Shown: positions 2,705 to 54,302, counted from the first letter of the stretch. The stretch: DNA of 64,000 nucleotides from Escherichia coli (GCF_003334815.1 NZ_QOWO01000015.1), one strand, 5' to 3'. Made by a program: numbers and translations. Notes: generated from the letters alone by a model not told the origin.

Positions 2705-2747
2705 GGTTTATTCCTCATTGAGGGCGCTTTTATCATGTGTTGCTTAT

Positions 2748-2774
2748 TTATCGGCAAGGGACGGGTAATCTTTA
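2748..2774 (-). promoter_or_regulatory. Sigma-28 (FliA) class 3 promoter for flgMN: TAAAGATT-N11-GCCGATAA
   Basis: Minus-strand reading of 2767-2774 gives TAAAGATT and of 2748-2755 gives GCCGATAA with an 11-nt spacer, about 45 nt upstream of the flgM start codon. Confidence 0.7.
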
Positions 2775-3439: not shown

Positions 3440-3593
3440 TTTCGCCCCCAGCCATTTCTACAACGTGAATTGTACCTGTCCGCAATGACCATCAACGGCA
3501 TAAATAGCGACCCATTTTGCGTTTATTCCGCCGATAACGCGCGCGTAAAGGCATTTAAGCTGATGGCAGAATTTTGATACCTGCGGAGGAGAT
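3440..3593. promoter_or_regulatory. Divergent flgA / flgB promoter region (FlhDC-dependent class 2); contains GCCGATAA at 3530-3537 on the plus strand
   Basis: 154-bp intergenic region between divergent flagellar operons; FliA-type -10 octamer about 57 nt upstream of flgB ATG but no good TAAA -35 at the canonical spacing. Confidence 0.5.
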
Positions 3594-4010
3594 ATGCTCG
3601 ATAAGCTCGACGCCGCCTTACGTTTTCAACAAGAGGCGCTCAATCTGCGCGCCCAGCGTCAGGAAGTGCTGGCAGCAAACATCGCCAATGCCGATACCCC
3701 TGGTTATCAGGCGCGCGATATCGATTTTGCCAGTGAACTTAAAAAAGTCATGCAACGTGGACGGGATGCAACCAGTGTGGTTGCACTGACGATGACCTCA
3801 ACGCAACACATTCCGGCGCAGGCGCTGACGCCTCCTACCGCAGAACTGCAATACCGTATTCCGGACCAGCCTTCGCTTGACGGTAATACCGTCGATATGG
3901 ATCGCGAACGCACCCAGTTTGCCGATAACAGCCTGCAATACCAGATGAGCCTTAGCGCGTTGAGCGGGCAAATCAAAGGCATGATGAACGTTTTACAGAG
4001 TGGAAATTAA
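3594..4010 (+). CDS. flgB: Flagellar basal-body rod protein FlgB, 138 aa
   Basis: 138-aa [45 protein letters not shown]; rod-protein N-terminal motif. Confidence 0.95.
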
Positions 4011-4429: not shown

Positions 4430-5125
4430 ATGTCCATTGCGGTAACCACCACCGATCCGACAAATACCGGCGTCAGTACCACCAGCAGTAGTTCGCTCAC
4501 GGGCAGCAACGCCGCAGATTTACAAAGCAGTTTTCTGACTTTGCTGGTGGCGCAGCTGAAAAACCAGGACCCGACCAATCCAATGGAAAACAACGAGCTG
4601 ACGTCGCAATTGGCACAAATCAGCACGGTCAGCGGGATTGAAAAACTCAATACCACGCTCGGATCTATTTCCGGACAGATTGATAACAGCCAGTCGTTAC
4701 AGGCCAGTAACCTGATCGGTCACGGCGTGATGATCCCCGGCACCACTGTTCTTGCGGGAACCGGCAGTGAAGAAGGGGCTGTGACCACGACCACGCCGTT
4801 TGGTGTTGAGCTGCAACAGGCGGCAGACAAAGTTACGGCCACCATCACCGATAAAAATGGCGCGGTTGTGCGCACCATTGATATTGGTGAACTGACCGCC
4901 GGAGTTCACAGTTTCACCTGGGACGGTACGTTGACTGATGGCAGCACTGCGCCGAACGGTTCTTACAATGTAGCGATTAGCGCCAGTAACGGTGGTACAC
5001 AACTGGTTGCCCAGCCGCTGCAGTTTGCTCTGGTGCAGGGTGTGATCCGCGGCAACAGCGGTAATACGCTGGATCTCGGCACTTACGGCACCACCACCCT
5101 CGACGAAGTACGGCAGATAATTTAA
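4430..5125 (+). CDS. flgD: Flagellar hook capping/assembly protein FlgD, 231 aa
   Basis: 231-aa Thr/Ser-rich ORF with NQDPTNPMENNELTSQLAQISTVSGIEKL motif. Confidence 0.95.
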   Translation: MSIAVTTTDPTNTGVSTTSSSSLTGSNAADLQSSFLTLLVAQLKNQDPTNPMENNELTSQLAQISTVSGIEKLNTTLGSISGQIDNSQSLQASNLIGHGVMIPGTTVLAGTGSEEGAVTTTTPFGVELQQAADKVTATITDKNGAVVRTIDIGELTAGVHSFTWDGTLTDGSTAPNGSYNVAISASNGGTQLVAQPLQFALVQGVIRGNSGNTLDLGTYGTTTLDEVRQII

Positions 5126-10893: not shown

Positions 10894-10920
10894 TCAAGTC
10901 CGGCGGGTCGCTGCCGATAA
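10894..10920 (+). promoter_or_regulatory. Sigma-28 class 3 promoter for flgKL: TCAAGTCC-N11-GCCGATAA
   Basis: Perfect GCCGATAA -10 at 10913-10920 with a 5/8 match to TAAAGTTT at 10894-10901, 34 nt upstream of the flgK ATG. Confidence 0.65.
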
Positions 10921-10953
10921 TACTCTGTAATTGAAGGCTTATAAGGAACCTCC

Positions 10954-12597
10954 ATGTCCAGCTTGATTAATAACGCCATGAGCGGACTGAACGCGGCCCA
11001 GGCGGCGTTAAATACGGCAAGTAATAATATCTCCAGCTATAACGTTGCCGGATATACCCGCCAAACCACTATTATGGCGCAGGCCAATAGCACGTTGGGC
11101 GCTGGCGGCTGGGTTGGCAATGGTGTCTACGTTTCTGGTGTGCAGCGTGAGTATGATGCGTTTATTACCAACCAGTTACGTGCGGCGCAGACGCAAAGTA
11201 GCGGTCTGACTGCCCGCTATGAGCAGATGTCGAAAATCGACAATATGCTCTCCACCAGTACCTCTTCGCTGGCAACACAGATGCAGGATTTCTTCACCAG
11301 CCTGCAAACGCTGGTGAGTAACGCGGAAGACCCGGCAGCGCGCCAGGCGCTGATTGGGAAATCAGAAGGATTGGTGAATCAGTTTAAAACCACCGATCAA
11401 TATCTGCGCGACCAGGACAAACAGGTCAATATCGCGATAGGTGCCAGCGTTGATCAGATCAACAACTACGCTAAACAAATTGCCAGCCTGAACGATCAAA
11501 TCTCGCGCCTGACAGGCGTGGGGGCAGGGGCGTCACCTAACAATCTGCTGGATCAACGCGATCAACTGGTGAGCGAATTAAACCAGATTGTTGGTGTAGA
11601 AGTCAGCGTTCAGGATGGCGGCACTTATAACATCACGATGGCCAATGGTTACTCACTGGTTCAGGGAAGTACGGCGCGGCAACTGGCGGCAGTTCCTTCC
11701 AGCGCTGACCCTTCTCGTACGACTGTCGCTTATGTTGATGGGACGGCAGGCAATATTGAGATCCCGGAGAAATTACTGAATACCGGGTCGCTGGGCGGCA
11801 TTCTGACATTCCGTTCTCAGGATCTGGACCAGACGCGTAATACGCTTGGACAACTGGCGCTGGCATTTGCCGAGGCTTTCAACACCCAACACAAAGCCGG
11901 ATTTGATGCTAACGGCGATGCCGGTGAAGATTTCTTTGCTATCGGTAAGCCCGCGGTTCTGCAAAACACGAAAAACAAAGGTGACGTTGCGATCGGTGCC
12001 ACGGTAACTGATGCCTCCGCGGTACTGGCGACAGATTACAAAATCTCGTTCGATAATAATCAGTGGCAGGTCACCCGCCTTGCCAGCAATACCACTTTTA
12101 CGGTGACGCCGGATGCCAACGGTAAAGTGGCATTTGATGGTCTGGAGTTGACGTTTACAGGAACGCCTGCCGTTAACGACAGCTTCACGCTGAAACCAGT
12201 AAGTGACGCCATCGTCAACATGGATGTATTAATCACCGACGAAGCGAAAATAGCGATGGCGAGCGAAGAAGATGCGGGTGATAGCGATAACCGCAACGGT
12301 CAGGCCCTGCTGGATCTGCAAAGCAACAGTAAAACGGTGGGCGGTGCGAAATCCTTTAACGACGCTTATGCCTCGTTAGTGAGTGATATCGGTAATAAAA
12401 CCGCGACGTTGAAAACCAGTAGCGCCACGCAAGGTAATGTGGTGACGCAGCTTTCCAATCAGCAGCAGTCGATTTCCGGTGTCAATCTCGATGAGGAGTA
12501 CGGAAATCTGCAACGTTTTCAGCAGTATTACCTGGCGAATGCGCAGGTTCTGCAGACGGCAAACGCGATTTTTGATGCGCTGATTAACATTCGCTAA
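10954..12597 (+). CDS. flgK: Flagellar hook-associated protein 1 FlgK, 547 aa
   Basis: 547-aa ORF MSSLINNAMSGLNAAQAALNTASNNISSYNVAGYTRQ; terminal heptad regions. Confidence 0.95.
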   Translation: MSSLINNAMSGLNAAQAALNTASNNISSYNVAGYTRQTTIMAQANSTLGAGGWVGNGVYVSGVQREYDAFITNQLRAAQTQSSGLTARYEQMSKIDNMLSTSTSSLATQMQDFFTSLQTLVSNAEDPAARQALIGKSEGLVNQFKTTDQYLRDQDKQVNIAIGASVDQINNYAKQIASLNDQISRLTGVGAGASPNNLLDQRDQLVSELNQIVGVEVSVQDGGTYNITMANGYSLVQGSTARQLAAVPSSADPSRTTVAYVDGTAGNIEIPEKLLNTGSLGGILTFRSQDLDQTRNTLGQLALAFAEAFNTQHKAGFDANGDAGEDFFAIGKPAVLQNTKNKGDVAIGATVTDASAVLATDYKISFDNNQWQVTRLASNTTFTVTPDANGKVAFDGLELTFTGTPAVNDSFTLKPVSDAIVNMDVLITDEAKIAMASEEDAGDSDNRNGQALLDLQSNSKTVGGAKSFNDAYASLVSDIGNKTATLKTSSATQGNVVTQLSNQQQSISGVNLDEEYGNLQRFQQYYLANAQVLQTANAIFDALINIR

Positions 12598-12608
12598 GGG
12601 GAGATAAG

Positions 12609-35856: not shown

Positions 35857-37697
<1,841 letters not shown>

Positions 37698-53844: not shown

Positions 53845-54302
53845 GGGCGGGACTTCCGTTTCCTGCGTGATTTTTTAGAGGAGGGCATACTTATTAATAA
53901 ACCGACGGCGATAAAAATAACGCCCATAATGCCGATAAACCCCCATTTAAAAAAATTAACCCACGGGTTATTTATCTCAGCCTTTTCAGGATGCCCGGGA
54001 GAATAATAAACATTAACTTTATCGCCTTCGCTGTCTTCATAAAAATCGCTGCCGATACTCGAATTGAAAATTAGCGTGTAATCTGGCGTCGGTCGAAAGG
54101 CAACGACGGGATACCACGAACCATCTTTACCCGTGCGATGAGAATGACTGGAGTGCCAGACGGTATCAACAATGACGCCTTCGGTATGAATCGCGTCTTT
54201 GCTATAGGTGAACTGGTTATAAAAGACAACAACAGAAATGAGGATCAGTACCAGACCGATACCGAGGAATATACGAAAGAAAACTTTACTGTCCTGACTC
54301 AT
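53841..54302 (-). CDS. ymfA: Inner-membrane protein YmfA, 153 aa
   Basis: ORF-track frame 53841..54311; ATG at 54302 gives [28 protein letters not shown]; ATGA overlap with ycfZ. Confidence 0.85.

Follow-up and report, generated by a model that had tools for sequence, protein, structure and literature searches.

Can one octamer do two different jobs within a single regulatory locus? We analysed a stretch of Escherichia coli DNA of 64,000 nucleotides, called the window below, in which the sequence GCCGATAA is found upstream of two flagellar operons, at 10913-10920 before flgK and at 3530-3537 before flgB. Both copies read like the -10 element of a promoter for FliA, the sigma-28 factor. An earlier note on this DNA proposed that the flgK copy belongs to a class 3 promoter for flgKL, and that the flgB copy is more likely part of an FlhDC-dependent class 2 promoter than a FliA promoter.

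The gene order of the window is that of a K-12-type E. coli chromosome, with murJ, flgNMA on the minus strand, flgBCDEFGHIJKL on the plus strand and then rne (RefSeq annotation of the identical region). Adding 1,127,423 to a window coordinate gives the position in NC_000913.3, and a 500-nt test stretch was identical to MG1655. The offset to NC_000913.2, in which the FliA ChIP-seq paper gives its coordinates, is approximately +1,126,649, as derived from two motif centres. For scoring, a 28-column FliA matrix was built from the ChIP-seq motifs of Fitzgerald et al. (2014), with the window's own flgM and flgK entries excluded, and applied to all 127,946 positions of the window. A 601-nt query across flgJ/flgK was matched in all 5,426 complete E. 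coli genomes (5,426/5,426); five of these matches are on plasmid-labelled records, which are probably mislabelled chromosomal sequence. An Rfam scan of the whole window returned only the RNase E 5' UTR element rne5 (16968-17304, minus strand, 260 bits) and the sRNA SraB (19166-19334, plus strand, 211 bits), both of which are expected at this locus, and gave no match at the flgK or flgB octamer sites.

The flgK copy is the simpler of the two. It matches the sigma-28 -10 element at 8/8 positions on the plus strand, GC being the extended -10 and CGATAA the core. An 11-nt spacer (10902-10912) separates it from the -35 at 10894-10901, TCAAGTCC, which agrees with the consensus TAAAGTTT at 5/8 positions. 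The earlier note had reported an octamer with a partial -35 at 11-nt spacing, and this is what the sequence contains. The promoter serves flgK (10954-12597) and flgL (12609-13562), which together cover 10954-13562 on the plus strand according to the ORF list and the RefSeq annotation of the identical region. On the FliA matrix the site scores 16-18 bits, ranks 4th-6th of 127,946 positions and draws the larger share of its score from the -10 half; a score at this level is expected about 0.002 times per 65-nt intergenic region. A simple scan of the flgJ-flgK gap, itself 65 nt long, found neither a sigma-70-like promoter nor a terminator, which is consistent with read-through from upstream plus a promoter used by sigma-28 only. 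With the octamer numbered -15 to -8 and A-11 at 10917, we infer that the exact start of the class 3 transcript falls within 10927-10929 (plus strand), probably near 10928, which would give a leader of about 26 nt to the ATG at 10954. Among the entries that Kim et al. (2012) and Ettwiller et al. (2016) list as supplementary data, none is near the predicted flgK or flgB starts.

Published occupancy and expression data bear directly on this site. The 28-mer at 10894-10921 (TCAAGTCC-N11-GCCGATAA-T) is found letter for letter under flgKL in the FliA ChIP-seq table. Fitzgerald et al. (2014, Table 2) list TCAAGTCCGGCGGGTCGCTGCCGATAAT for flgKL with a fold-above-threshold (FAT) value of 47, a strong occupancy that compares with 48 for flgMN and 43 for fliDST. 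When FliA was overexpressed in an flhD deletion, flgK was expressed at the wild-type level or above (Fitzgerald et al. 2014), and Zhao et al. (2007) measured a 5.5-fold decrease of flgK when fliA was deleted and a 2.2-fold increase when it was overexpressed. In RNA-seq, flgK RNA fell from 318 to 138 in a fliA deletion (Fitzgerald et al. 2014). The drop is limited to this extent because of read-through: RT-PCR across flgJ-flgK showed that transcripts of the FlhDC-dependent flgB operon run on into flgKL (Fitzgerald et al. 2014), and flgKL therefore has a dual input. The flgK octamer is thus the -10 of the established, textbook class 3 (FliA) promoter of flgKL, already characterised, and the ChIP-seq identity, the fliA deletion and FliA overexpression in the flhD deletion all support the class 3 assignment that the earlier note had made. 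The site in the window is the same object as the flgKL class 3 promoter known from E. coli and Salmonella, including the dual input, and we found no differences. What can be added to that knowledge is that the -35 is conserved across the order in its TCAAG form, and that the spacer is free in sequence.

This conservation was measured in loci gathered by a genome scan with FlgG and 10-kb flanks, which returned 80 Enterobacterales loci ranging from Citrobacter to Xenorhabdus; Salmonella is not among them. Of these, 78 include flgJ-flgK, the window counted, and every one (78/78) has a matrix match of more than 10 bits upstream of flgK. When the 78 loci are anchored on the motif, the -35 carries 1.63 bits of information per column, the spacer 0.17 and the -10 1.83, with 0.24-0.42 in the flanks. 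The spacer is therefore fixed in its length of 11 nt and free in its sequence. The octamer GCCGATAA serves as the flgK -10 in 59/78 loci. In the -35, TCAAG is found in 76/78 loci, so that the 'partial' -35 of flgK is a conserved variant and not a product of decay. The commonest form is TCAAGTTT (36 loci), and the E. coli form TCAAGTCC accounts for 14. TCAA-type -35s are also found at further FliA-bound sites in the ChIP-seq table, for example at modA and fliL. Within the species, 4,947 of 5,426 E. coli genomes share an identical 45-mer across the flgK promoter, and the promoter elements are unaltered in a divergent E. coli lineage and in E. albertii.

The promoter usually begins 4-10 nt past the flgJ stop codon, at distances of 30 to 227 nt from the ATG. 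The flgJ-flgK gap is 62-79 nt in Enterobacteriaceae as against 190-636 nt in Serratia, Yersinia and Hafnia (L041-L060). In these three genera the sigma-28 promoter lies 66-227 nt from the flgK ATG, and long 5' leaders follow from that distance. As a separate observation, the annotation of the laboratory strain E. coli ER1709 marks flgG (L001, 8707-9488) as a pseudogene with a frameshift, although over flgJ-flgK the strain does not differ from the window.

The flgB copy is a different matter. It lies at 3530-3537 on the plus strand, in the flgA/flgB intergenic region and 56 nt upstream of the flgB ATG (3594). The canonical -35 position, 3511-3518, reads CCCATTTT and is without a TAAA core; going upstream, one first meets a TAAA at 3501-3504, 25 nt from the octamer. 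The earlier note had described the octamer, the -35 position and the distance of the TAAA correctly. Moving the -35 to a 10- or 12-nt spacing gives 3/8 matches, poorer than the 11-nt register, and these alternatives were discarded. The whole site scores 10-11 bits on the FliA matrix and ranks 25th-41st of 127,946 positions, with 13.3-13.7 bits from the -10 half and a negative contribution from the -35 half. By sequence such a score exceeds chance only marginally for a region of 154 nt. Judged from the sequence alone, flgK is a clear sigma-28 promoter and flgB a strong -10 without a -35.

What else is at this place? The octamer overlaps the operator of the master regulator FlhD4C2. A gSELEX study gives the FlhDC consensus as AAYGSSNNAAATAGCG-N10-12-CGCTATTTNNSSCRTT and, in its list of boxes, has the flgA/flgB box as AACGGCATAAATAGCGACCCATTTTGCGTTTATTCCGCCGAT. 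This published box is 42 bp long, occupies 3494-3535 and is common to the divergent class 2 promoters flgAP1 and flgBP1. With a 10-nt spacer it agrees with the consensus, in the form listed, at 24/28 specified positions and is the best match in the flgA-flgB intergenic region; if N positions are counted as matches, the left arm scores 16/16 and the right arm 12/16. The known box and the octamer are partly the same nucleotides. The first six bases of the octamer, GCCGAT (3530-3535), are the outer SSCRTT of the flgB-proximal arm, which they match at 5/6 positions of the listed consensus, and the last two, AA (3536-3537), are outside the box. The TAAA at 3501-3504 sits within the distal arm (AAATAGCG). 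In vivo, an FlhDC ChIP-seq peak assigned to flgAMN/flgBCDEFGHIJ is centred at 1,130,152, which is about 3503 in the window, and deletion of flhD or flhC lowers flgA and flgB more than 100-fold. Of the 78 loci, 75 have a recognisable box. A 32-genus alignment shows one long conserved block, TCAAyGcaAyAAATAGCGAcGCATTTTGCGyTTATTCCgnCGATAa, flanked by two shorter ones, gATTtTAC (TACAAT or TAAAAT on the flgA strand) and TTA-AGCTG (3554-3562).

We infer that these two shorter blocks are the -10 regions of the sigma-70 class 2 promoters flgAP1 and flgBP1. For flgAP1 the hexamer would be TACAAT at 3469-3474 on the minus strand, within the conserved gATTtTAC, with a start near 3461. For flgBP1 the core would cover 3557-3570 on the plus strand, with a -10-like TAAGCT at 3557-3562 and a start near 3570. 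Transcript lengths published by Klimova et al. agree with the latter: the flgBP1 transcript measures 116 nt and that of a second promoter, flgBP2, measures 141 nt. Since flgBP1 gives a transcript 25 nt shorter than flgBP2, which starts at 3545 (see below), it should start near 3570. On the other side, flgAP2 gives a transcript that exceeds the one from flgAP1 by 23 nt (Klimova et al.). With +1 at about 3570, as these lengths imply, the box would span -76 to -35 of flgBP1, nearly symmetric to its placement at flgAP1.

The second promoter is the one to which the octamer belongs. Klimova et al. (NAR 2026) name two divergent sigma-28 promoters in the flgA-flgB region, flgAP2 and flgBP2, which have a single -35 in common. 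The flgB -10 mutant primer of their supplement, beginning TTGCGTTTATTCCGCGGCATAACGCG, maps onto 3530-3537. So does their '-11 mismatch' oligonucleotide, which alters the template T opposite the A of GCCG-A-TAA, and A-11 of flgBP2 is therefore 3534 and its start 3545 on the plus strand. The flgBP2 of that study and the site at 3530-3537 are thus the same object, without differences in sequence, and the octamer is at once the edge of the FlhD4C2 box and the -10 of flgBP2. The common -35 is at 3511-3518 and reads CCCATTTT for flgBP2 and, on the minus strand, AAAATGGG for flgAP2. Klimova et al. call the flgBP2 -35 'particularly poor' and ascribe the weakness of the promoter to it, in line with the negative -35 score on our matrix. 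A marbox lies in the flgBP2 spacer at 3515-3529 in reverse orientation (minus strand), as converted from the published -16 to -30 with +1 at 3545. The flgAP2 -10 is GCCGTTGA at 3492-3499 on the minus strand; it is overlain by the flgA -10 mutagenic primer GGTCGCTATTTATGCGGCTTGATGG and scores 8.1 bits on the flgA strand.

Klimova et al. report that sigma-28 holoenzyme in vitro gives the expected flgBP2 transcript only with an intact -10, and that FlhD4C2 overlaps and represses both flgAP2 and flgBP2. MarA activates flgBP2 in vitro and in vivo. When it is bound at -16 to -30, base pair -11 becomes distorted and permanganate-reactive and full opening follows, and a pre-formed mismatch at -11 makes MarA dispensable. 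Salicylate-induced MarA increases flgB::lacZ expression, and this effect is lost when flgBP2 is deleted (all Klimova et al.). FliA ChIP-seq, with 52 sites, has no peak at flgB, and overexpression of FliA in an flhD deletion did not rescue flgA, flgB or fliF (Fitzgerald et al. 2014). It follows that flgBP2 gives little or nothing under standard growth, and Klimova et al. suggest that occlusion by FlhD4C2 and the absence of MarA are behind the ChIP-seq miss. The physiological weight of flgBP2 rests on this one study, with ectopic sigma-28 and induced MarA.

The overlap of operator and -10 might be thought a general design of promoters that respond to both FlhDC and FliA. The fliAZY and fliLMNOPQR operons are known examples and, like flgB, are class 2 regions with GCCGATAA as a sigma-28 -10. 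The MEME-derived boxes that the gSELEX table gives for fliA and fliL did not look trustworthy, and we rescanned both regions with the consensus as listed. The octamers of fliA and fliL in MG1655 are 26-27 nt downstream of the end of the FlhDC box and overlap the sigma-70 core promoter. The flgB octamer, by contrast, has 6 nt in common with the box, and the class 2 start is 25 nt downstream of it. A rule that the proximal arm of the FlhDC box is the sigma-28 -10 at dual promoters was accordingly rejected, the fliA and fliL octamers being 26-27 nt past the box, and the flgB geometry is an exception. FliA occupancy differs in parallel, with FAT values of 91 at fliA and 18 at fliL and no peak at flgB. 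The flgB geometry fits the repression of flgBP2 by FlhD4C2 as well as the ChIP-seq data, in which fliA and fliL have FliA peaks and flgB has none.

Another informative comparison is with the flgMN class 3 FliA promoter of the window (2747-2774, minus strand). Its sequence, TAAAGATT-N11-GCCGATAA-A, is exactly the flgMN entry of the ChIP-seq table, and it shares with flgK the octamer, the 11-nt spacing and a similar occupancy (FAT 48, compared with 47). Like flgK, this promoter sits immediately behind the stop codon of a class 2 gene upstream. With 7/8 matches its -35, TAAAGATT, comes close to the consensus, compared with 5/8 for the TCAAGTCC of flgK, and with 25-28 bits the promoter tops the FliA matrix ranking in the window. 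The octamer copy at flgM (2755-2748, minus strand) explains why the earlier note spoke of a 'second' sigma-28 motif at flgK: it is the first.

Octamer matches are more numerous than these promoters. The window holds 10 copies of GCCGATAA where 2.2 are expected, a number that 0/100 shuffles reach. Seven copies are outside the three flagellar promoter regions (3921, 24223(-), 25991(-), 26863, 49035, 50903(-) and 53931), and these seven alone are more than the expected number for the entire window, 2.2. They seem to be within ORFs or genes, the copy at 3921 in flgB itself, and the usage of the codons GCC-GAT-AAx may be a source of the excess. High-scoring matrix matches also occur in other places. 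The second in the ranking, above flgK, is TAAAAATAACGCCCATAATGCCGATAAA at 53912-53939 (plus strand, 22-23 bits), which is antisense within ymfA, identical in MG1655 and not among the 52 published FliA ChIP-seq sites. Its -35 carries a G5-to-A change; in published mutants, G5-to-A in the -35 lowered the activity of the aer promoter approximately 4.5-fold. Three further matches are on a par with flgK at 17-18 bits: 4828-4855 (plus strand; within flgD, in the sense direction), 26492-26465 (minus strand) and 36604-36631 (plus strand). None of these three is in the FliA ChIP-seq list, which illustrates that the prediction of sigma-28 sites by matrix is limited.

With this evidence in hand, we are confident that the two GCCGATAA octamers have distinct and documented jobs, the flgK copy as part of the class 3 promoter, and the flgB copy as the edge of the FlhD4C2 operator and as the -10 of the cryptic flgBP2. 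Published experiments on exactly this sequence have demonstrated FliA occupancy of flgK and FlhDC occupancy of flgA/flgB, the MarA effect, and octamer-dependent transcription of flgBP2 by sigma-28. A narrower view, close to that of the earlier note, is that the flgB octamer is functionally just the outer arm of the FlhD4C2 box, its sigma-28 likeness incidental and flgBP2 a phenomenon of in vitro work or overexpression that plays no part in cells. We think this unlikely. It draws on the missing FliA peak at flgB, on the failure of FliA to rescue flgB without FlhDC, on the negative -35 half and low total of the site, on the 72 loci outside Escherichia that have no extended -10 GC, and on the fact that SSCRTT, in the listed consensus, already fits GCCGAT at 5/6 positions. 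On the other hand, the sigma-28 transcript requires an intact octamer, the MarA effect on flgB::lacZ is gone without flgBP2, a -11 mismatch replaces MarA, and the octamer is invariant in the sampled E. coli lineages and E. albertii; Klimova et al. account for the ChIP-seq negative through FlhD4C2 occlusion and a lack of MarA. The preference of the earlier note for class 2 over FliA at flgB thus holds as far as the octamer being within the FlhDC box and the absence of a FliA peak or rescue are concerned, the site being no ordinary FliA promoter, and fails in that the same octamer is the sigma-28 -10 of flgBP2.

Two further explanations fare worse. Sigma-28-like sequences at class 2 operons were noted in the early literature, and the flgB octamer could be read in that light as the -10 of an FlhDC- and sigma-70-dependent class 2 promoter, for example through GATAAC (3533-3538), which matches TATAAT at 4/6 positions and would place a start about 7 nt downstream. 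We consider this very improbable, because the sigma-70 promoter flgBP1 starts near 3570, some 25 nt beyond 3545. The octamer is moreover within the FlhDC box, the boxes of fliA and fliL end 26-27 nt upstream of the core -10, and the conserved TTA-AGCTG (3554-3562) is in the right place for the flgBP1 -10. That one or both octamers are chance matches without promoter function is scarcely credible. The seven additional octamers without a FliA peak, and the 22-bit match in ymfA that is also unbound, would speak for it, but for flgK the exact ChIP-seq site, the regulation data and the 78/78 loci stand against it, published occupancy and expression having already refuted it, and for flgB there is direct mutagenesis; 10 copies where 2.2 are expected likewise do not look like chance. 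Nor do the two promoters depend equally on FliA, the outcome that the earlier note had named as telling against its proposal: their use of FliA differs greatly. Both octamers are real and are already explained in the literature.

The reading with two distinct jobs can be put as a sequence of events. At flgK, FliA RNA polymerase reads the TCAAGTCC -35 and the GCCGATAA -10, 11 nt apart, flips out the A at 10917 (-11) and probably begins transcription at about 10928, and it does so after the anti-sigma factor FlgM has been secreted by way of the completed hook-basal body. At flgB, a single 42-bp FlhD4C2 operator (3494-3535) activates the divergent sigma-70 promoters flgAP1 and flgBP1. The flgBP2 promoter, with almost no -35, opens poorly and is occluded by FlhD4C2, and it fires when MarA binds in the spacer (3515-3529) and distorts base pair -11.

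A point that Klimova et al. do not discuss is the conservation of flgBP2, and here the two octamers part ways. In the 75 loci with a recognisable box, the homologous 8-mer keeps CGAT at positions 3-6 in 67, and the flgB-proximal arm across Enterobacterales keeps CGAT(A/G)(A/G). Positions 1-2 are GC in only 3/75 loci, all of them Escherichia (the window, another E. coli and E. albertii; Salmonella was not sampled). Elsewhere these positions are GG (Citrobacter), GT (Enterobacter and others), GA, AA and so on. The full flgB -10 octamer is accordingly not conserved in relatives and is absent from the 72 non-Escherichia loci with a box. The FlhD4C2 consensus, in the form listed, does not demand GC at 3530-3531; the flgB arm of the window has GC where other genera have GG, GT or GA. 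The GC is the extended -10 of sigma-28 promoters, in which the octamer is numbered -15 to -8 and A-11 is flipped out. A promoter without a -35 should depend on this extended -10 GC.

This distribution suggests, short of proof, that flgBP2 arose in the Escherichia lineage; the suggestion is tempered by the sample, in which Salmonella is missing, and by GTCGATAA and GACGATAA, which act as -10s elsewhere in the ChIP-seq table, at FliA-bound sites with a good -35. We offer tentatively, at somewhat less than even chance, the idea that the MarA/sigma-28 input to the flgB operon is an Escherichia innovation made by one or two substitutions, the GC at 3530-3531 completing an extended -10 and thereby a cryptic promoter occluded by FlhD4C2. 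The restriction of the octamer to Escherichia among the sampled loci is equally compatible with a selected promoter and with a mere side effect of the FlhDC box. In Escherichia both outer ends of the box finish in CGGC (TCAACGGC ... GCCGATAA, at 3492-3499 and 3530-3537), and each arm bears an outward-facing octamer that resembles a sigma-28 -10, that of flgAP2 on one side and that of flgBP2 on the other. Most other genera have TCAACGCA at the left end of the box, and so neither outward -10 is complete in them.

The discovery value of these results is small, as the elements concerned are documented parts of one of the best-studied regulatory cascades in bacteria. They do carry some lessons for the annotation of promoters. 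A '-35' with 5/8 matches need not be degenerate and can be a variant with deep conservation, and an 8/8 sigma-factor -10 inside an activator operator may be invisible to ChIP-seq and yet belong to a conditional promoter. If the MarA/sigma-28 input is indeed an Escherichia innovation, flgBP2 would be a datable co-option of a regulatory site as a promoter element, and Citrobacter, Enterobacter and their relatives would be without MarA/sigma-28 control of flgB. The contrast between a flgB octamer that is complete, among the sampled loci, only in Escherichia and a flgK promoter that is universal in the order bears on how new promoter inputs arise.
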